From Gammaproteobacteria bacterium (lineage in GTDB: Bacteria; Pseudomonadota; Gammaproteobacteria; UBA6429; Thiohalophilaceae), in contig JAOULB010000001.1 in NCBI GenBank assembly GCA_029882235.1, forward strand, positions 1 to 27,565: a stretch of 27,565 nucleotides of DNA. Reading direction: 5' to 3'. The position numbers and the translations under genes were made by a program. Shown here one piece after another: positions 1 through 27,565 of the stretch (its first letter is position 1; each line of letters begins with the position of its first letter). The notes under the pieces were generated by a model. That model was not told where the DNA came from. It did not search any database and was given only the letters and a program-made list of their open reading frames with translations.

Positions 1-71
1 CCTCCGCTGTTGCATGATGATATTAATAAACATGTAACTACTAAAGTGATGATCTGTAATTTTGCATGCAT
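1..71 (-). CDS. 5' end of a probable lipoprotein, running off the window edge
   Basis: Manual translation of the minus strand from ATG at 71 gives MHAKLQIITLVVTCLLISSCNSG. This has a basic N-terminus, a hydrophobic core and lipobox I-S-S-C. SD AAGGAG lies at 85-80. Not in the ORF track because it is truncated. Confidence 0.75.
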   Translation of the reverse strand, partial: MHAKLQIITLVVTCLLISSCNSG

Positions 72-17300: not shown

Positions 17301-19340
17301 CTAGTTAGGCAGTTTAAAACCAGCGACTGAATGACGAAGTTCATTCGCCAGCTCAGCCAGGTTACCAATCGAAGCAGCGGTTTCATTGGTACCCGCTGAG
17401 GTCTGAGTCGTGATTTCCTGAATCACATTCATAGTCTCAGAAATATTGGTTGCTGCTCGGGCCTGCTGCGATGCAGACTCTGAAATGTTTCGAATCAGAT
17501 CCGCAAGGTGAGAAGACACCGATTCAATCGACTCAAGGGCTTCACCCGCGTTTTGCGCCAGTTGCGCTCCCGCGACAACACCCGAGGTACTTTCTTCCAT
17601 CGAGGACACCGCCTCTTTAGTATCAGACTGAATCCCTTTCACCAGCGCCTCAATCTGTCGAGTCGCGTCACCGGAACGTTCCGCCAGTCGCTGAACTTCG
17701 TCCGCTACCACCGCGAAGCCTCGTCCGGCTTCACCGGCCATGGCCGCCTGAATCGCCGCGTTCAAGGCCAGAATGTTGGTTTGTTCGGCAATGTCATTAA
17801 TCAGCTCAACGATGTCACCAATTTCCTGTGAGCTTTCACCCAGACGTTTAATACGTTTTGAGGTTTCCTGAATCTGTTCACGAATGGTATCCATACCATG
17901 AATCGTTTTCTGCACCGCTTCCGCGCCTTTACCCGCGATGGTTACCGACTTGTTCGCTTCGTCGGCCAGCTCACTCGCGTGAGAAGAAACCGCTTCAATA
18001 GAAATCGCCATTTCGTTAATCGCACTACTGGCATCAGTAATCTGCTGCGCCTGATGGTCAGAAGCTTCAGCAAGATGCATCGCTGTCGCCTGCGTCTGTT
18101 GCGCCGCTGAGGATACCTGTTGAGTTGTATCGTTAATCGCCGCAACCAGATTACGTAACGCGTCGATCGCATAGTTGATCGAGTCCGCGATCGCGCCGGT
18201 AATATCTTCTGTTACTGTTGCTGTTACCGTCAGGTCACCATCCGCGAGGTCACCCATTTCGTCCAGCAGTCGCAAAATCGCTTCCTGGTTTCGTGTGTTG
18301 GTGTTTTCAGTCATCTGACGTTGATGCTCAGTCTGATTCAGACGGCGACGTGAGTCATTCCAGTAGAGATAACCCAGCAGAACAACCAGCCCCAGAGATA
18401 ACACACCAAACAACTTCGCCAGTACGGGCATTAAACGACCTTCAGTTGCACCCTCATAAGCAGAAGATACCGCTGAGATCTGGTTCAGGAGTAATTCACT
18501 CACACCCAGAATTTCTTCGGCCGCACCAGACACCTGGAACATTTCTGGTGAACGCTCAAGAATTGAACCGACCTGGTTTCGAATATCAGCAAACTGTTTG
18601 GATACTTCAAGCAGTTTTGCGCGTGCGCCCGGTGCTGTAATCTTGGTAATACTTAACCGCGAGTTACCACGCAACATATCCTGAATCACGCGACCGAACA
18701 GCGCCGCATCTCGACCGAATCGGTCAGCCGCAGTTACCGCACCTTCACCACCATCCAGTACACGACTCACGTTACTGGAGATACGTTGCATCAACATCAG
18801 CTGACGCGTGGCGATATAAACCTGATCGGGCTTGGCACCCTGTTGTGCCATACTGGCCACAACTTCGTCTGACAAAGCCAGAAGAGTAGGAATCTGTTCA
18901 TTAATACCAGTAATGTAAGAACGCATGTTTGCCACAACTTCACGACGCTTGAGAATAATGTCGACGTTCTCACTATAGCTCTTCCATAGACCATACAATT
19001 TAGTTAATGGCGCCATTTCACCTGAAATTTCGCCCGGCGTTTCACGTTTCTGGTAGTTCAGAATTTCTTCAAACTGATCACGCGAACGCTGTAATAATGG
19101 GAAGGCTTTAATATCACCACGTGCAGCCTGTGAGGCCAGCTTGGCAATTTCCTGAGATAAAACACTTTGCTCACCGATTTTGGAGATATAAGTTTTATCA
19201 TTACTATCCTGTGCAGCGCTCAGACCGAAATAAACCGCCATCGCGACCACTGACACAACTAACAGGATGATCACCAGGACCATTGTGCGTCCATAGGATG
19301 TCGTTGCGTTACCTAACAGACCATCAGTTGAAAACTTCAT
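17301..19340 (-). CDS. pilJ: Methyl-accepting chemotaxis protein PilJ
   Basis: Two TM segments, a periplasmic domain, a HAMP-like region ([17 protein letters not shown]) and the MCP tip [38 protein letters not shown]. Confidence 0.95.
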
Positions 19341-19439
19341 TGTTTTGCTCCTCGTACTTTATATAAGCAACGGCACTCGACCGACTTACCCTGATTACTC
19401 TTCACCCATTATGTCGTCAAACATATATTTTTTTTATCC

Positions 19440-19994
19440 TCAGGATTTTGCGGCGACTTCTTTAAACACCGAATCCTGACATAGTTGGGGAATACTAAAA
19501 ATGCCCCAATAAACATCATTTTGCTGATAGGCGCCTGTTAGCTTGCCCATCAATTCTTTTGAAATCTGTGGGAACATGTCCGTCTGTTCCTCTTCAAAAA
19601 AGTGGCGTAAACCAAATACTTCATCAACCAGCAGGCCTGCCGCTAGTTTGTCACGATTGATAACCAGAATTCGTGAACGACGATGGATGGGGGTGGTTCG
19701 ACCTTCGATAAAATTACCCATATCCAATATCGGCATCAATGTACCACGTACATTCGCCAATCCTAAAACCCAGGGTTGCGCACTGGGCACGCGTGTCATT
19801 TGTGGAAAAGGCAGAATTTCATTCACCTCCCCGAACGCGGCGACCAGTCTTACGTCACCTAACCTGAAACCAATACCTGACCAGGTCTGGCGAACTTCAA
19901 TCTGGCTTGGCAGACCCAGGGCCTTCTGACGACTACGGGCTTCAATGTCCCGTAATAACTCAAAAAGTGGGTTGGATTCTGCCACTGCTGCCAC
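19440..19994 (-). CDS. pilI: CheW-like PilI; start reassigned to GTG 19994
   Basis: TRVPSAQPWVLGLANVRGTLMPILD and AGLLVDEVFG. GGAGG (20007-20003) lies 8 nt before an in-frame GTG at 19994, a better start than TTG 20009. Confidence 0.9.
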   Translation of the reverse strand: MAAVAESNPLFELLRDIEARSRQKALGLPSQIEVRQTWSGIGFRLGDVRLVAAFGEVNEILPFPQMTRVPSAQPWVLGLANVRGTLMPILDMGNFIEGRTTPIHRRSRILVINRDKLAAGLLVDEVFGLRHFFEEEQTDMFPQISKELMGKLTGAYQQNDVYWGIFSIPQLCQDSVFKEVAAKS

Positions 19995-19998
19995 CGTC

Positions 19999-20364
19999 CT
20001 AGCCTCCAATTATGGTCTTAATCTTACTGACCAGGTCATCCTCAGATACAGGTTTGGAGATATAGTCTTTTGCACCCTGGCGTAGACCCCAAACACGATC
20101 GGTTTCCTGATCCTTGGTTGTTACGATAATAATAGGAATTGATGAGGTCTCCGGATCTTTAGTTAATGCACGCGTGGCCTGAAAGCCATTCATGCCCGGC
20201 ATAACAACATCCATCAATACCAAATCTGGTTTTTCCTTTTTAGTCATCGCAATACCGTCTTCGGCATTATCCGCTGAAAGCACCTCAAAACTGTTCTTTT
20301 CAAGAATGGTTTTAAAGACATGCACTTCAGTGGGCGAATCATCAATAATTAATATCCGTGCCAT
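19999..20364 (-). CDS. pilH: Single-domain response regulator PilH
   Basis: ILIIDDSPTE, LMDVVMPGMNGFQATR, TTKDQETDRVWGLRQGA. Confidence 0.95.
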   Translation of the reverse strand: MARILIIDDSPTEVHVFKTILEKNSFEVLSADNAEDGIAMTKKEKPDLVLMDVVMPGMNGFQATRALTKDPETSSIPIIIVTTKDQETDRVWGLRQGAKDYISKPVSEDDLVSKIKTIIGG

Positions 20365-20438
20365 GTGATTATTCTCCCACCTGCACAGTCATATCTGTGT
20401 TGTTATTGTTATGTTGATTTCGTTTCATTGACTTAACC

Positions 20439-20843
20439 TTATCGCATTGCATGTTTCTTAATTGCACCCAGCAGTTCTTCTTTAGTGAACGGCTTGGTTA
20501 AATACTGTTCTGAGCCAACGATACGTCCCTTGGCTCGGTCAAATAGACCATCTTTACTCGATAGCATTATTACAGGTGTTTTTTTAAACACCTTGTTGTT
20601 TTTGATCAATGCTGTGGTCTGATAACCATCCAGTCTCGGCATCATGATATCGACAAAAATTATCGCTGGGCGATGATCGGCAATCTTGGCCAGGGCCTCA
20701 AAACCATCAGTGGCCGTGACGACTTCACAACCGACTTTTTTCAGCAGGGTCTCAGCCGTGCGTCGAATCGTCTTGCTGTCATCGATGACCATTACCTTTA
20801 ACCCCTGGTAAATATCATCCATTGCCTTTTCTGCGAGAGCCAT
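20439..20843 (-). CDS. pilG: Single-domain response regulator PilG (alternative start ATG 20822)
   Basis: GLKVMVIDDSKTIRRTAETLLKKVGC, FVDIMMPRLDGY, MLSSKDGLFDRAKGRIVGS. Confidence 0.96.
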   Translation of the reverse strand: MALAEKAMDDIYQGLKVMVIDDSKTIRRTAETLLKKVGCEVVTATDGFEALAKIADHRPAIIFVDIMMPRLDGYQTTALIKNNKVFKKTPVIMLSSKDGLFDRAKGRIVGSEQYLTKPFTKEELLGAIKKHAMR

Positions 20844-20920
20844 GATCTATTTTATCCACTTCAATCCCCTTAGGGGCCGATTTTAGTGTAAGTTACCCGA
20901 CATATTTAATATTAATTTTA

Positions 20921-20957
20921 AATATCGTATATAAGTATCTATATTATATACGATATT
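20921..20957. repeat. Perfect 14-bp inverted repeat with a 9-nt spacer in the pilG/gshB divergent region
   Basis: AATATCGTATATAA (20921-20934) and TTATATACGATATT (20944-20957) are exact reverse complements. Confidence 0.9.
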
Positions 20958-21211
20958 CGATGAATTCAATTATTTAAATGTGTTTCACCATCCTGGACCC
21001 AGTTCACATTGACTGATAATTTTCTAAACTTTTCCGAGTTGAGACATACTACCTGTAAAATTCCCACAATAAAAGTACTGTTGGTTAAAAAATGTACAAA
21101 TTTTTGCCCAGACAGATTCCTCCATATGGCCTACCATATCGCTCTACCCGAATTTAGACAAGATCAACAAAACCCTTGTCACATTATTGTTAAAACCGGT
21201 ACTTTGCTTTT

Positions 21212-22171
21212 ATGAAACTCAAACTTGGCGTGATCATGGATCCCATCGGCTCCATCAATTTCAAAAAGGACAGCACGCTGGCCATGTTGCTTGAGGCCCA
21301 GTCTCGTGACTATACACTCTACTATATAGAACAGCAGCACCTGTTTGCTGTGAACAATCAGGCCATGGCGACGGCCCAGCCTGTTCAGGTATTTGAGAAT
21401 CCTGATCAGTGGTATGAATTAGGCCCCCAACAGACGATTGCCCTGGCGGAGCTGGATGTCATCCTGATGCGTAAGGATCCTCCTTTTGATATGGACTACA
21501 TCTACACCACTTATCTACTGGAGCTGGCTGAAGCGGCGGGTACGCTGGTGGTCAACCGAGCACAGAGTCTGCGCGACGCCAATGAAAAGTTCTTCACCAC
21601 CCAGTTTCCCCAGTGCATTTCACCCACGCTGGTCAGTGCCCAGGCAGAAACTCTGCATGCCTTTGTGAAAGAGCACCAGGACACCATATTAAAGCCACTG
21701 GATGGGATGGGTGGTGCTTCTATATATAGAGTGAAGCAGAACGACCCAAACATTAATGTGATTTTCGAAAACCTGACTCAACACGGTCAGCGTCTGATCA
21801 TGGCGCAGAAGTTTATCCCTGAGATCAGCGCCGGCGATAAGCGTATCTTGCTCATTAATGGCGAGGCCGTGCCCTATGCACTGGCACGCATCCCCGCCAA
21901 AGGTGAAACCCGTGCTAATCTGGCCGCAGGTGGCGAAGGTGTCGTGGTAGAACTCACCGAACGAGATCACTGGATCTGTCGGCAAGTCGCACCCACGCTT
22001 ATTGATAAGGGGCTTATGTTTGTTGGCATTGATGTGATTGGTGATTACCTGACTGAAGTGAATGTCACCAGCCCAACCTGCATTCGTGAAATCGATCAGG
22101 CACAGGGCCTGAATATCAGTGCACAATTAATGGACTGTATTGAGCGAACCATAGAGGAGAAACAGCATTGA
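21212..22171 (+). CDS. gshB: Glutathione synthetase
   Basis: IMDPIGSINFKKDSTLAML, LMRKDPPFD, NEKFF, KPLDGMGG, GDKRILLI, GIDVIGDYLTEVNVTSPT. Confidence 0.97.
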   Translation: MKLKLGVIMDPIGSINFKKDSTLAMLLEAQSRDYTLYYIEQQHLFAVNNQAMATAQPVQVFENPDQWYELGPQQTIALAELDVILMRKDPPFDMDYIYTTYLLELAEAAGTLVVNRAQSLRDANEKFFTTQFPQCISPTLVSAQAETLHAFVKEHQDTILKPLDGMGGASIYRVKQNDPNINVIFENLTQHGQRLIMAQKFIPEISAGDKRILLINGEAVPYALARIPAKGETRANLAAGGEGVVVELTERDHWICRQVAPTLIDKGLMFVGIDVIGDYLTEVNVTSPTCIREIDQAQGLNISAQLMDCIERTIEEKQH

Positions 22172-23208
22172 GGACGTTCTCTAAGCTTTATCTGGCATTT
22201 ATCATCGGCATCTTTTTAACCGCCTGCCAACCCGCACCGAAAGAACAAAAGCTCAGTCTGTTTGTATTTGGCACCCTGGTTGATGTCACTTTGTGGGGTG
22301 TCGATAAACAGACCGCCGAGCAGGCCGTCAAAGATATCGAAACAGATCTGAAGTTTATGCACTTTGCCTGGCATGCCTGGCAGCCGGGACCATTGGGGCG
22401 AGTGAATGAATTACTTTCACTTGCGGGTGAGTTTTCCGCCAACCCGGCTTTGCTCGATATCATCGCGAAGTCACAACAACTCGCCAATAATAGTGAGCAT
22501 CTGTTTAATCCGGCAATCGGTCATTTGATCGCGTTGTGGGGCTATAACAGTGATGATCCACCAAAGGGGCCACCACCTGATGAAAAGCGAATTAAAAAAC
22601 TGTTGGCCAAAAACCCACGCATGGATGACATCAGTATTGATCATGTGCGCATGAAAAATAAAAACGCCGCCGTCAAACTTGATCTGGGCGCTATTGCCAA
22701 GGGCTATGCACTCGATCGTGTGGTTAACAACATCAAAACGCTAGGTGTAAAAAATGCCATCATCAATGCTGGCGGCGATATCAAGGCCATCGGTAAACAT
22801 GGTGATCGCAACTGGCATATCGGGATTCGTCACCCACGTAAGGAAGGTGTCCTTGCAGGCATATCGCTGCAAGATGGCGAGAGTATTTTTACCTCGGGCG
22901 ACTATGAACGCTTCTATGAACATGAAGGTATTCGTTATCATCACATCATTGATGGTCGTACCGGTTACCCTGCCCAGGGTGTGCAATCTATCACCGTGAT
23001 ACATCCAGATGCAGCGACTGCAGATGCGGCGGCAACCGCACTGTTTATTGCTGGCGTAAAAGACTGGCACCGTATTGCGAAAAAAATGGGCATCAAATAT
23101 GCCATGCTGATCGATACCAATGGCAATATTCATCTGAATCCAGCCATGCAAAAACGGCTTGAATTTAAAGATAAAAACCAGCAAATGAATATCAGCGCGC
23201 CACTATGA
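22168..23208 (+). CDS. apbE: ApbE FAD:protein FMN transferase, lipoprotein
   Basis: Lipobox LTAC, DLGAIAKGY, INAGGDI, TSGDYERF, YHHIID.RTGYP and ADAAATALF. 4-nt overlap with gshB. Confidence 0.93.
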   Translation: MRTFSKLYLAFIIGIFLTACQPAPKEQKLSLFVFGTLVDVTLWGVDKQTAEQAVKDIETDLKFMHFAWHAWQPGPLGRVNELLSLAGEFSANPALLDIIAKSQQLANNSEHLFNPAIGHLIALWGYNSDDPPKGPPPDEKRIKKLLAKNPRMDDISIDHVRMKNKNAAVKLDLGAIAKGYALDRVVNNIKTLGVKNAIINAGGDIKAIGKHGDRNWHIGIRHPRKEGVLAGISLQDGESIFTSGDYERFYEHEGIRYHHIIDGRTGYPAQGVQSITVIHPDAATADAAATALFIAGVKDWHRIAKKMGIKYAMLIDTNGNIHLNPAMQKRLEFKDKNQQMNISAPL

Positions 23209-23564
23209 CTCGTACCGATTTTATTATTCTGATTGTTGTTTTTTCCGGACTGCCCTTTGTGTATAAAAGCTTCTGGCAACAAACTGGCGCGGCTGAATAT
23301 GCCAATATTTTTGTTGATACAACACAGCAGCACCAGCTGCGACTCACTGAAGATCAGGTCTCAAGTATTCCGGGTGTACTCGGTGTTTCAAAACTTGAAA
23401 TCAAACAGGGGCAAATCCGTTTTATTGACTCACCCTGTAAAGGCAAGGTCTGCATTAAACAGGGCTGGATAAAATCAAACGGTGATCTCGCGGCCTGCCT
23501 ACCCAATAAAGTCGCGATCCAGCTTGCTGGTCAGTATCAGCTTTACGACAGTATTAACTTCTAA
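23205..23564 (+). CDS. NusG domain II (DUF1312) family protein with an N-terminal membrane anchor
   Basis: SPCKGKVCIKQGWI...G...CLPN pattern and an N-terminal hydrophobic segment. ATGA overlap with apbE. Confidence 0.85.
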   Translation: MTRTDFIILIVVFSGLPFVYKSFWQQTGAAEYANIFVDTTQQHQLRLTEDQVSSIPGVLGVSKLEIKQGQIRFIDSPCKGKVCIKQGWIKSNGDLAACLPNKVAIQLAGQYQLYDSINF

Positions 23565-23569
23565 TCTGC

Positions 23570-24082
23570 ATGACAACAACAATACAACTAAAAACCACCG
23601 CTGAAGATCATCGCATTGCCTGGTTCAGTGCGCTGGCGATTCTGATCCATGTCATTGAAAGTGCACTGCCCTCACCCTTACCTGGCGTTAAGCCTGGCCT
23701 GGCCAATGTCATCACCATTATTGTCCTGTGCAAATATGGCTGGCGCACTGCAGCCTGGGTGAGTGTGCTGCGTGTGCTGGCAGGCAGTTTGATCCTCGGC
23801 ACTTTTTTATCGCCGACATTTATGCTCAGCCTGACCGGCGCATTGTGTAGTGTTGTAATTCTTATCATCGCCAGTCAGCTGCCCGGTCGTGGCGCTGGCC
23901 CGATTGGTTTTAGCGTCCTTGCTGCGATGGCTCACATCAGCGGCCAGTTTCTGATGGCCTGGGCAATGTTTATCCCCCATCCCGGTCTATGGAAACTGTT
24001 TCCGGTTTTGTTAACTTTTGCCATAATTCTGGGCATTATCAACGGTATTATTAGTCTAATGGTTTTAAAACGTCTGCAATGA
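23570..24082 (+). CDS. Gx transporter family / 'heptaprenyl diphosphate synthase component I' membrane protein (ECF S-component-like)
   Basis: IESALP..LPGVKPGLAN, LRVLAGSL..GTF, SLTGA and AH.SGQ; several TM segments. Confidence 0.85.
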   Translation: MTTTIQLKTTAEDHRIAWFSALAILIHVIESALPSPLPGVKPGLANVITIIVLCKYGWRTAAWVSVLRVLAGSLILGTFLSPTFMLSLTGALCSVVILIIASQLPGRGAGPIGFSVLAAMAHISGQFLMAWAMFIPHPGLWKLFPVLLTFAIILGIINGIISLMVLKRLQ

Positions 24083-24987
24083 GCACCATGATTACGCATC
24101 TGCCCTACCGCTATTCCGTCGGTCATAAGGACCGCTTTGGCATTACGCTGTTTTTTGCCCTGGCTATGCATGCGATCATAATCCTTGGTGTTAGTTTTGA
24201 TCTGGAAGATCTGACCGATCCGGATAATGTCGCCACCATGGAAGTCACACTGGTGCATAGTAAAACTGATGAAGCACCCGAGGATGCCGATTATCTTGCG
24301 CAAGCCAATCAGGTCGGTGGTGGCAATATGCAGGACAAGGTACGCCCCAGTAGCCCATTTTCGAACCCTTTACCGACCGACGATCAGGGTTTTGCGCCCA
24401 ACAGCAAAAAGGAAATGATTCCTCCACCTGAAAAAATTAAAAAAGATCAGCGCGAAGTTTTAACCGTTAAGAAAAGTGATTTTCGTACCAACAGCAAGCC
24501 TGAAGAAATCCCCTTACCGCATCAGCAAAACACCCTGACTGCGGCACAACTGTTTGAACGAAGCAGCGAGATTGCACGTTTAAGTGCAGAAATCGATAAA
24601 CTGAAAAAGGCCTACCAGAAAGAAAAACACCATAAGTGGCTCACGGGTGCCAATGCGAAAGAATATAGATATGCCAGCTATCTGGATGCCTGGCGCGCCA
24701 AGGTCGAGCGCATTGGCAATATGAATTTTCCCAGCGAAATCAAACGCAATAGTATCTATGGCAAGGTGCTACTTGATGTGGCGATTAATCCCGATGGCAG
24801 CCTGCATTCGATGAAGGTCTTGCGTTCATCCGGCAATCGAATCATTGATCGCGCCGCCCAACGCATTGTGCGTATGTCTTCGCCCTTCCCACCTCTGCCG
24901 GCGGATATTCTTAAAGAAACCGATGTCCTTCACATCCCTCGTGAGTGGCGTTTCCAAAGATCCGGATTTGCGACGACATCACGTTAA
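24079..24987 (+). CDS. tonB: Energy transducer TonB (TonB3-like by synteny)
   Basis: TM segment FALAMHAIIILG, APEDADYLAQANQVGGG, and C-domain YLDAWRAKVERIGN...LRSSGNRIIDRAA..PFPP..HIPREWRF. It occupies the gshB-yqgE interval, as P. aeruginosa tonB3 does. Confidence 0.88.
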   Translation: MSTMITHLPYRYSVGHKDRFGITLFFALAMHAIIILGVSFDLEDLTDPDNVATMEVTLVHSKTDEAPEDADYLAQANQVGGGNMQDKVRPSSPFSNPLPTDDQGFAPNSKKEMIPPPEKIKKDQREVLTVKKSDFRTNSKPEEIPLPHQQNTLTAAQLFERSSEIARLSAEIDKLKKAYQKEKHHKWLTGANAKEYRYASYLDAWRAKVERIGNMNFPSEIKRNSIYGKVLLDVAINPDGSLHSMKVLRSSGNRIIDRAAQRIVRMSSPFPPLPADILKETDVLHIPREWRFQRSGFATTSR

Positions 24988-25008
24988 AAAATAATTTGCG
25001 TTGAGCAC

Positions 25009-25037
25009 TTGTCAGCTCTGTCATACTTCCTGATACT
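25009..25037 (+). promoter_or_regulatory. Putative sigma70 promoter of the chimeric tonB (duplicated yqgE promoter)
   Basis: TTGTCA-N17-GATACT, then 7 nt to ATG 25045. Both hexamers are identical to the copy at 25715-25743. Confidence 0.6.
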
Positions 25038-25044
25038 GCTATAT

Positions 25045-25680
25045 ATGACTTCTCTGATTAATCTAGCCAGCAAAACAGTGATTTTTGCACTGGCCATGCA
25101 TACAAATATGATCCTTGGTGTGAGCTTTGATCTGGCCAACCACGGTAATGTTTATGCTATGGAAATCACTCAGGTGCACAGTAAAACAGACGAAGAACCT
25201 AAAAAGATTCCCATACCGCTCAAACAAAACACACTCACAGCTGAGCAACTTCTTGAAAGGGCTAACACGATTGAGCGTATGAGTGCTGAGATCAAAAAAC
25301 TAAAAAAGGCTGTTCAAAATGAAAAACAGCATAGGTGGCTCCATGGCACGATAGCGAAAGAATATCATTATGCCCGCTATCGAGATACCTGGCGTGCCCA
25401 GATTGAACTCACTGCTAACATGATATTTAAACGTAACGGTATCAGTAAGTACGGCAAAGTACTGCTGGATGTGGCGATCAATCCCGATGGCAGTCTACAT
25501 TCGACAAGAATATTGCGCTCATCTGGAAATAAAACTATTGATAAAGCCATCAAACTCATTGCTCGCATTTCTTCACCCTTCCAGCCTTTACCACCGGAAA
25601 TTCTCAAAGATACCGATGTGTTACACATACCTATGGAATGGCGTTTTCAGAAGTCTGGTCTCGCCACCACATCACGTTGA
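25045..25680 (+). CDS. Chimeric yqgE'::tonB paralog, 211 aa, linker-deleted (alternative start TTG 25009)
   Basis: MTSLINLASK resembles YqgE MSSLIDPADN (23/30 nt). The remainder aligns to the upstream TonB at about 60% (middle) and 76% (C-terminal) identity by hand count, with an intact frame. Confidence 0.82.
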   Translation: MTSLINLASKTVIFALAMHTNMILGVSFDLANHGNVYAMEITQVHSKTDEEPKKIPIPLKQNTLTAEQLLERANTIERMSAEIKKLKKAVQNEKQHRWLHGTIAKEYHYARYRDTWRAQIELTANMIFKRNGISKYGKVLLDVAINPDGSLHSTRILRSSGNKTIDKAIKLIARISSPFQPLPPEILKDTDVLHIPMEWRFQKSGLATTSR

Positions 25681-25682
25681 AC

Positions 25683-25700
25683 TTATTTTTTAAAAAATAA
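25683..25700. repeat. 18-bp perfect AT palindrome TTATTTTTTAAAAAATAA
   Basis: Read directly. Only the right half is present in the first duplication unit (24985-24994). Confidence 0.8.
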
Positions 25701-25714
25701 ATTCGCATCCGCTC

Positions 25715-25743
25715 TTGTCAGCTCTGCCATGCTGCCCGATACT
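25715..25743 (+). promoter_or_regulatory. Putative sigma70 promoter of yqgE-ruvX-pyrR-pyrB
   Basis: TTGTCA-N17-GATACT, 7 nt before ATG 25751. No SD upstream of the ATG; A-tract at about -60 to -51. Confidence 0.62.
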
Positions 25744-25750
25744 ATAAAGT

Positions 25751-26326
25751 ATGAGTTCTCTGATTGATCCAGCTGACAACCTGACCAATCACTTCCTGAT
25801 TGCGATGCCAAACCTTGCCGATCCAAACTTTCACCACACCGTGACCTACATGTGTGACCATAATCCTGAAGGCGCAATGGGGCTGGTGATTAATCGACCC
25901 ATGGATCTGTCACTGGGCGAGCTATTTGATTATCTCGATATTCAGAACGGTAAACAGGATATTCTCAATATCCCCGTTTATCAGGGTGGTCCGGTGCAAA
26001 CCGAGCGGGGCTTTGTGCTGCATAAGCCCATGGGGGAATGGGAAGCCAGCATGCCAATTACCCCTCAGCTTGAACTCACCATGTCACAGGATATTATCGA
26101 AGCGATTGCCCATGGCGAAGGCCCGGATCAATACCTGATTGCGCTGGGTTACGCGGGTTGGGGTCAGGGTCAGCTCGAGGCCGAGCTGGCATCCAACGCC
26201 TGGCTCAGTGGTCCTGCTGAGAATGCGATTATTTTCGACAAGCCCATCGAGCAACGCTGGAATGCCTCTGCGGCCCTGTTGGGGGTCGAGATCAGCCAGA
26301 TATCCAATGACATTGGGCATGCCTGA
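25751..26326 (+). CDS. yqgE: YqgE/AlgH family protein
   Basis: FLIAMP, GAMGLVINRP, GGPV..RGFVLH, LGYAGWGQGQLEAELASNAWL. Confidence 0.95.
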   Translation: MSSLIDPADNLTNHFLIAMPNLADPNFHHTVTYMCDHNPEGAMGLVINRPMDLSLGELFDYLDIQNGKQDILNIPVYQGGPVQTERGFVLHKPMGEWEASMPITPQLELTMSQDIIEAIAHGEGPDQYLIALGYAGWGQGQLEAELASNAWLSGPAENAIIFDKPIEQRWNASAALLGVEISQISNDIGHA

Positions 26327-26744
26327 GGCCCAAACCCTGCTTGGTTTTGATTACGGAAAACAGCGCATCGGCATCGCCGTTGGCCAGACCCTGACCGCTT
26401 CCGTCACCCCCCTTACAACGCTCAAGGCCATCAAACAAAAGCCTGACTGGCGCTCGATTCAGGCCCTGATCGAGGAATGGCAACCCGATTTACTGGTGGT
26501 TGGCCTACCCCTGCACATGGATGGCAGTGAGCAATTACTTACCGAGGAGGCAAGACGTTTTGGACATAAACTCAAAGGGCGCTACAATCTACCCGTCGAA
26601 TGGATCGACGAGCGCCTGACCTCCAATGAAGCAGAAGAGATTTTCCGCCAACAAGGTGGCAAAATGCGCTCAGACAAACAGGATATTGATAAAATCGCAG
26701 CAGGCCTGATCCTGCAAAGCTGGTTGAGCCAACATAATAACTAA
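26319..26744 (+). CDS. ruvX: YqgF/RuvX resolvase-like nuclease; start reassigned to ATG 26319
   Basis: LGFDYGKQRIGIAVG, VVGLPLHMDG, DERLTS and DKIAAGLIL. The in-frame ATG overlaps the yqgE end by 8 nt; the longer ORF-track start would lie inside yqgE. Confidence 0.93.
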   Translation: MPEAQTLLGFDYGKQRIGIAVGQTLTASVTPLTTLKAIKQKPDWRSIQALIEEWQPDLLVVGLPLHMDGSEQLLTEEARRFGHKLKGRYNLPVEWIDERLTSNEAEEIFRQQGGKMRSDKQDIDKIAAGLILQSWLSQHNN

Positions 26745-26747
26745 AAC

Positions 26748-27251
26748 ATGTCAGAAAACGATGTAAAAAAACTCCTGGCCAAAATGGCGCAGGACACGCA
26801 GAAACGCCTGCAAGACAATCAGATCTCTGATCCTGTCATGATTGGTATTCAAACTGGCGGCGTCTGGGTTGCCGAAGCCCTGCATCAACAGCTAAAAATT
26901 AAAGAAGACCTCGGCAAGCTCAACATCAGCTTCTACCGCGATGACTTCACCCGTATTGGCATGCATCCAACAGTTCAACCATCCAGCCTGCCGTTTGCCG
27001 TCGATGATCGCCACATTATTCTGGTTGATGATGTCTTACATACTGGTCGCACCATCCGCGCGGCATTAAACGAAATCTTTGATTATGGTCGACCCGCCTC
27101 CGTCATACTCGCCGCGCTGGTTGAACGCAGTGGTCGCGAACTGCCCATTTGCGCGGATATCGTTGGTAAGCGCATTGACCTGTCCGAGACTCAACACATA
27201 AAACTGACTGGCCCCGAGCCACTGACACTGGAACTCCAGGAGGGCAAGTGA
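26748..27251 (+). CDS. pyrR: PyrR pyrimidine regulator / uracil phosphoribosyltransferase-like
   Basis: [20 protein letters not shown] loop [24 protein letters not shown]. Confidence 0.94.
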
Positions 27252-27565
27252 AGAATCAGGATATCCAGCTCGACACACAGGGACGGCTGCGCCACTTCCT
27301 CACGATTGAGGGATTAAAACGTGATATTCTGAACGACATACTTGATACCGCTGAAAATTTTTCCACCGTCGGTACACGCACCGTTAAAAAAGTTCCACTG
27401 CTGCGCGGCAAGACCATCGCCAATCTCTTTTTTGAAGCCAGCACCCGCACGCGCACAACTTTTGAACTCGCAGCGAAACGCCTTTCTGCTGATGTACTCA
27501 ACATCAATATTGATACCTCATCAACAACCAAAGGTGAAAGCCTGCTCGATATGCTGCGTAACCTT
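27248..27565 (+). CDS. pyrB: Aspartate carbamoyltransferase catalytic subunit, 5' part (truncated by the window edge)
   Basis: Manual translation from GTG 27248 gives [23 protein letters not shown]...[28 protein letters not shown]...KGESLLD. The STRT motif is present; 4-nt overlap with pyrR. Confidence 0.96.

Follow-up and report, generated by a model that had tools for sequence, protein, structure and literature searches.

What is the second tonB-like open reading frame (ORF) that lies between tonB and yqgE in the genome of an uncultured Thiohalophilaceae gammaproteobacterium from sediment, and has it been kept for some function? The stretch analysed (hereafter the window) comprises the 27,565 nucleotides of contig JAOULB010000001.1 at positions 1–27,565 (GenBank assembly GCA_029882235.1). 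An earlier note, made from the letters alone, had described the ORF as a gene born at the junction of a tandem duplication, where the beginning of yqgE became fused in frame to the body of tonB. The explanation that we favour, and consider fairly probable, is that the ORF would be an old junction chimera, which captured a promoter and a new head from yqgE, has been held under relaxed purifying selection, and is now an accessory paralogue of TonB3 type, carried by some strains only, in which the parts for coupling and for recognition have changed.

The duplication junction

The full-length TonB3-type gene (copy 1, 24079–24987, forward strand, 302 aa) gives a Pfam TonB_C score of 50.1 bits. It is followed on the same strand by the chimeric ORF (copy 2, 25045–25680, 211 aa), which is made up of a yqgE-derived head (MTSLINLASK, 25045–25074) and a TonB-derived body (25075–25680, codons 11–211 plus the stop). 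Then come a second copy of the tonB–yqgE intergenic region (25681–25750) and the intact yqgE/algH gene (25751–26326, 191 aa), both on the forward strand; the latter is recognized by Pfam DUF179/AlgH-like (181.5 bits) and also by NCBIfam YqgE/AlgH. Bases 24985–25074 align without gaps to 25691–25780, with 66 of 90 identical (43/60 for the intergenic stretch and 23/30 across the ten codons after it, corresponding to yqgE codons 1–10), precisely the counts given in the earlier note. The same 90-mer was also placed at the 54,691 other positions that the two strands of the window offer; the mean number of identities there is 22.9 with a standard deviation of 4.2, and the next best placement reaches 42, giving the match a z of about 10. 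A repeat search of the window recovers the same pairs and also matches 24140–24205 with 25070–25135 at 79%, the repeat pairs being spaced by a period of 693–706 bp.

At the protein level, BLASTP aligns the chimera with copy 1 at 65% identity over 169 aa (the last residues) and at 61% over 46 aa (the membrane-helix part), and the alignment begins at copy-1 residue 23. The layout is that of a duplicated segment whose 3′ end is joined to its own 5′ end, head to tail: the 5′ region of yqgE with its first ten codons runs directly, and in frame, into tonB codon 23. The repeat pairs and the start of the BLASTP alignment therefore bear out the duplicated unit that had been proposed, from tonB codon 23 to yqgE codon 10. 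The exact join lies somewhere in codons 9–10 (about 25067–25075), where both parents fit partly. The alignment of the chimera with copy 1 contains gaps of 3, 74 and 2 residues, matching the three coding deletions of 9, 222 and 6 bp described earlier, all of them multiples of 3. Gene conversion between the two tonB copies was considered and ruled out, the longest identical run being 14 nt and the identity being even at 0.5–0.8.

The N-termini of TonB orthologues are unlike the head of the chimera, so the alternative that this head is ancestral in tonB is not borne out, and the comparison supports an origin of both the N-terminus and the upstream region of the chimera in yqgE rather than in tonB. 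Relative to the heads of outgroup yqgE genes, the chimera head carries the derived changes D6N, D9S and N10K; acidic residues have gone and a lysine stands beside the helix. These changes, at few sites, would fit an adaptation to the role of a cytoplasmic N-terminal tail.

Each intergenic copy contains a sigma-70-like site, TTGTCA-17-GATACT, that ends 7 nt ahead of the ATG (25009–25037 and 25715–25743, forward strand), the first of these being the duplicated promoter-like site located by a consensus scan ahead of the chimera. Between the two copies, neither the hexamers nor the ATG show any change, whereas differences occur at 5 of the 17 spacer positions and at most of the 7 nt that precede the ATG. 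When the upstream regions of yqgE were compared across the family (loci L006–L027), a box of the form TTGnnn-16..18-(G/A/T)ATA(C/A)T, 5–8 nt from the ATG, was found at 18 of 21 loci, without a clear Shine-Dalgarno sequence. Given this short spacing and the lack of a clear Shine-Dalgarno sequence, leaderless or near-leaderless mRNAs are predicted for yqgE and for the chimera. Leaderless transcription of yqgE itself would seem to be a conserved trait of this bacterial family. The captured promoter probably drives the chimera, and its mRNA would then be leaderless. An old tandem duplication of the segment occurred in the species lineage, after the split from the nearest sampled relatives, and the join placed a copy of the promoter, the start codon and the first ten codons of yqgE ahead of a TonB body.

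Single-copy relatives and a strain-variable allele

The earlier note had suggested searching relatives for single-copy and duplicated loci, and all the other species sampled turned out to be single-copy. A tonB orthologue is present at the same locus in 24 of 24 sampled family genomes, with yqgE and yqgF immediately behind it in every case where the contig extends far enough. With the chimera as query, the genomes of the 74 other species of the family each gave one strong match and no tandem tonB pair. The locus is single-copy as well in P0004 (82% identical to copy 1) and P0005 (76%), two closer relatives found in public assemblies. In protein trees, the chimera branches as the sister of a group formed by copy 1 and the single-copy strains, to the exclusion of G009 and P0004 (support 99/96 and 98/96), and its branch length is 0.65–0.68 versus 0.006 for copy 1. 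In P0004, the closest outgroup, Logan contig L047 (4298–5776) has a short pyrR (125 aa) and a pyrB split into OTCace_N and OTCace calls, which is probably a frameshift error in that contig.

Single-copy strains are also found within the species. Four independent contigs of the same species, L035 from the Joint Genome Institute (JGI), L036 from the European Nucleotide Archive (ENA) and L037 and L038 from two Sequence Read Archive (SRA) runs, carry a single TonB that is 99.3% identical to copy 1. Their flanks are 99.97–100% identical to those of the window on both sides: the left flank (18079–24929) differs at 2 of 6,851 bases, the right flank (25726–27436) at 0 of 1,711, and yqgE is 100% identical. 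Between the two flanks, a divergent patch, the 'long allele' (24930–25725, 796 bp), stands for only 100 bp of the single-copy form (L035 6852–6951), with dense differences inside. The patch reaches back into copy 1 and takes in its final 19 codons (24930–24984); compared with the single-copy strains, these differ at 13.5 of 14.5 synonymous sites and at 2.5 of 42.5 non-synonymous ones. We observe in passing that such a synonymous difference, in this small sample, exceeds random saturation (about 0.75). The GC content at third codon positions (GC3) is 0.41–0.42 inside the patch versus 0.50–0.59 in the neighbouring genes.

These data show that the duplicated form is a deeply diverged allele in an otherwise near-identical genome, present in some strains only. 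Since near-identical flanks enclose a deeply divergent segment of 796 bp, one of the two alleles, the long or the short, came in recently through homologous recombination, out of a diverged lineage that the databases searched do not contain. The description of the locus as a gene born here therefore has to be given up in the sense of a recent birth in this genome, given the four single-copy contigs of the same species, the near-identical flanks and the divergent patch between them.

The history of the patch was followed by comparing three units, each comprising the tonB tail, the intergenic region and the start of yqgE: X, from the single-copy form, and A and B, the first and second copies in the window. 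In the tonB tail, the three are about equally distant from one another. Features that the outgroups lack are nevertheless common to all three: the AAAAATAA block, TTGTCAGC, a spacing of 7 nt before the ATG and a head reading M-S/T-S-L-I. That the short allele arose from the long one by a simple A × B recombination is ruled out, as its tonB tail and the 5′ half of its intergenic region differ from both. GC3, synonymous distances to the outgroups and database searches fail to separate an import of the long allele, out of a duplicated lineage, from an import of the short one, out of a single-copy lineage, and no separate short-allele contig was found in the bin of the window. The duplicated allele now segregates in the species beside the single-copy allele. 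The clear ancestral single-copy state, the measurable shift of constraint and the presence/absence contrast between near-identical strains are the assets of this case; the contrast between alleles at the strain level is the most useful experimental handle on a re-headed, shortened TonB3-type protein beside the Pil-Chp genes.

Age of the chimera and selection on it

Over the 201 codons shared by copy 1 and the chimera, the pairwise non-synonymous and synonymous distances (dN and dS) are 0.219 and 1.46, respectively, with their ratio omega being 0.15, and the differences fall on the first, second and third codon positions in the numbers 42/34/98. The proportion of differing synonymous sites (pS) between the copies is 0.62–0.64, and between genera it is 0.60–0.78. 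With its synonymous sites near saturation, the duplication is old. A maximum-likelihood codon branch model written for this analysis gives an omega of 0.04 on the background and 0.22 on the chimera branch, with equal omegas rejected at p = 8e-5 and an omega of 1 at p = 0.009. When equal time is imposed on both duplicate branches, the omega of the chimera becomes 0.32, equal omegas are rejected at p = 2e-16 and an omega of 1 at p = 3.5e-8. Under simulated neutral change of 0.2–0.7 substitutions per site, the 201 codons stay free of stops in 3.5% down to 0.1% of cases. In a set of 22 orthologues, the chimera has changed from copy 1 at 31% of the invariant columns, 24% of the highly conserved ones and 55% of the variable ones.

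Taken as evidence from sequence, these results indicate that selection acted on the chimera as a coding sequence through most of its existence, with a constraint much weaker than that on its parent. The estimates show its protein evolving, by these models, about 5–9 times faster than the parent and yet under purifying selection. The purifying selection claimed in the earlier note thus stands, with omega well below 1; what has to be qualified is its strength, as the constraint is weaker than in the orthologues by the same factor of 5–9 and 30 of 68 invariant positions have been lost or changed.

A comparable event is the rnk–citT duplication that reportedly lay behind the Cit+ trait in the E. 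coli long-term experiment. In both cases, a head-to-tail duplication puts the downstream gene's promoter and start ahead of a 5′-truncated copy of the upstream gene, and the relatives are single-copy. Unlike rnk–citT, the chimera is natural rather than laboratory-evolved and is also an in-frame fusion of ten codons; it is old, has been kept under selection and is now a presence/absence allele. The mechanism, promoter capture and fusion at a tandem-duplication junction, is already well known, and the chimera is a good natural example of it; duplication is documented as a means of activating silent genes (PMC6614815, PMC11111574). Natural bacterial genes whose birth at a junction is still readable base by base are seldom documented. 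Here the promoter that was captured, the start codon taken over with it and the head of ten codons can all be read, and selection has lasted to synonymous saturation.

The chimeric protein and the competing explanations

What kind of protein would the chimera be? Its body consists of a predicted membrane helix with a conserved histidine, an altered D-box, a shortened linker, two helices and a TonB_C domain. Both copies pass the cut-offs of TonB_C and TIGR01352, the chimera with 32.5 bits for Pfam TonB_C PF03544 (cut-off 24.6) and 38.2 bits for TIGR01352 (cut-off 27.1). The transmembrane histidine is kept (ALAMH), while the family-invariant arginine before the helix is replaced by a lysine from the yqgE head. 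In the AlphaFold model of the chimera, a helix spans residues 4–24 and the C-terminal domain has a predicted local distance difference test score (pLDDT) of 85–93; both copies show the same C-terminal fold, but these models are led by the alignment of orthologues and have little bearing on whether the chimera works. By its descent, the chimera can be classed as a TonB-family protein, and its membership of a working TonB3 class is only putative, as is the functional new TonB that the earlier note saw in it.

In E. coli TonB, the D-box is an alternation of hydrophobic and hydrophilic residues gripped by an ExbD dimer, with the fifth position buried in ExbD and, in the strict form of the pattern, hydrophobic residues at positions 1, 3, 5 and 6 (PMC10907165). 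The stretch that follows the membrane helix in copy 1, MEVTLVH (residues 53–61 region, 24235–24261), fits this pattern, and by analogy it suggests that Poc-type TonB3 may be gripped by an ExbD-like partner as in E. coli. Six matches to the MotA/ExbB family are present in the genome, none of them in the window. Both copies further resemble E. coli TonB in keeping the transmembrane histidine and TonB_C.

A number of results weigh against the chimera as a selected accessory paralogue. The corresponding region of the chimera, MEITQVH, departs from the strict D-box pattern, with a glutamine at the buried fifth position where the family has an invariant leucine. Among the 68 columns that are constant in 44 orthologues plus copy 1, 38 are kept in the chimera, 19 are deleted and about 11 are substituted. 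The 19 deleted positions all fall in the 74-residue deletion and make up the whole conserved linker motif, which the chimera, with a linker 74 residues shorter than that of copy 1, has lost. In E. coli TonB, the loss of linker residues can be tolerated. This near-invariant motif of the TonB3-type proteins of the family, YLAQ-NQ-G-G ... R-S-PFSN ... G-AP, lies at about residues 68–141 of copy 1 (24280–24501) and is the most conserved linear motif of the family, even though the linker is disordered in the AlphaFold model of copy 1 (pLDDT below 50). In addition, the TonB_C profile aligns with the chimera only after its first 14 positions, the YP-type NFP motif at the entry of the C-terminal domain has become IFK, and the hydropathy of the best 19-residue stretch, 2.35 in copy 1, is down to 1.56, with T and N entering the helix.

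The evidence beyond the protein itself contains points of the same tendency. Near-saturated synonymous sites make dS and omega rough, and without the equal-time constraint neutrality is rejected at p = 0.009 only. Wherever the four single-copy contigs reach past tonB, they run into yqgE without a second copy. Among 5.8 billion clusters, the chimeric protein is a singleton with no closer relative than copy 1, and two scans of JGI metagenomes, which may not cover the window's own records, returned 0 matches to the exact 24-nt junction pattern and no relatives of the chimeric protein. No RNA run turned up in the search for expression data, and there is no proteomic evidence. With the D-box leucine changed to glutamine, the linker motif lost and NFP turned into IFK, the chimera most likely does a modified or partial job and is not a duplicate of TonB3. 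We propose that its product would be a shortened, inner-membrane-anchored, TonB3-like accessory paralogue, in which the transmembrane histidine and the C-terminal domain are kept.

Could the arrangement tonB–yqgE′–tonB′–yqgE exist in no genome at all, and be a contig chimera of two populations or a mis-join? The source is a metagenome bin of 475 contigs, 87% complete and with 3.4% contamination. Contigs (rather than raw reads) sharing patch words with the window were taken from four sediment runs of four studies, X1–X4, and placed on 24000–26500. In X1 and X2, a single-copy joint and separate copy 2 contigs are both present (for example, 25102–25755 with 0 differences, at a depth of 7.7 versus 9.5–11 in the flanks), so that both alleles coexist there, and no contig of X1–X3 lies over 25008–25091, which leaves the junction to the window contig and a contig of X4; this, too, counts against the favoured explanation. 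However, the join of yqgE codon 10 to tonB codon 23 is non-homologous, and a mis-join through a shared word is unexpected because the two sides share no long word. The X4 contig, independent and from a different study, is 223 nt long, covers 24906–25128 with 4 differences and crosses the yqgE′/tonB′ join. In X1–X3, copy 2 runs with 0 differences into the second intergenic region and yqgE, as in an X3 contig at 25644–26001 that links all three; and X3 has no single-copy joint, while its flanks match the window exactly. The contigs thus speak for a real junction, X4 across the join and X1–X3 from copy 2 to yqgE, and an assembly artefact is very improbable. Still harder to credit is that the locus was duplicated in place in this strain only recently and that the copies then diverged at great speed. 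Such a history would agree with the tandem arrangement and with the absence of the copy from all other sampled species, but a pS of 0.63 between the copies is out of proportion to the 2 differences in 6,851 bases and 0 in 1,711 that separate the flanks from the same-species contigs, and the divergence extends into the last 19 codons of copy 1, which a fast evolution of copy 2 cannot explain.

The rival that deserves most attention, though we hold it to be rather unlikely, accepts the duplication as real and sees in copy 2 a dispensable ORF that has ceased to be useful, or never was, and that is heading to loss while still open by chance. The weak constraint relative to orthologues, the 30 lost or changed invariant positions (the linker motif, the buried D-box residue and NFP among them), the weaker hydropathy of the transmembrane segment, the lower GC3, the four same-species contigs without the gene and the empty search for RNA runs would all be expected from such decay. 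Yet omega is significantly below 1 on the chimera's own branch, a frame of 211 codons has stayed open despite near-saturated synonymous change with every indel in frame, the promoter hexamers and the ATG are perfectly kept amid diverged neighbouring bases, and the changes avoid conserved columns. A recent loss of function of the chimera is possible. On a further, improbable reading, the chimera might be a neofunctionalised short TonB, translated from a leaderless mRNA, which would engage the Poc/ExbBD-type motor differently because of its altered D-box and missing linker motif, and would modulate or antagonise the TonB3-dependent polar pilus and flagellum. Balancing selection, exerted for example by pilus-dependent phages or by surface as against planktonic life in sediment, would then maintain it as a long-lived presence/absence polymorphism.

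The gene neighbourhood sets the old junction chimera beside a pilus chemosensory system. Upstream of tonB lie pilG/pilH-like receivers, CheW, a PilJ-type methyl-accepting chemotaxis protein, CheR, a ChpA-like kinase of 2046 aa, CheB and CheW; between these Pil-Chp genes and tonB are gshB and then an apbE / NusG-II / Hpre_diP_synt_I trio, and yqgE, yqgF, pyrR and pyrB follow downstream. The Pil-Chp setting described in the earlier note, with the order pil/chp, gshB, tonB, yqgE, yqgF, pyrR, is real. Copy 1 resembles P. aeruginosa TonB3 (PA0406) in having pilG/H/I/J, cheR-like, chpA-like and gshB genes on one side and yqgE, yqgF, pyrR and pyrB on the other, an order which we take to be that of PAO1. 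On the strength of this synteny, rather than of a comparison with the Pseudomonas sequence, copy 1 can be regarded as TonB3-like. TonB3 of P. aeruginosa is required for twitching, and PocAB–TonB3 for polar pili and the flagellum, in line with the earlier note (PMC5285504). The chimera is unlike TonB3 in being without the conserved linker motif of its own family and without a native N-terminus. In the trio of apbE, NusG-domain-II and Hpre_diP_synt_I (Gx-transporter-like) genes at 22168–24082, stops and starts overlap or abut, and the Hpre gene adjoins tonB in many genomes of the family.

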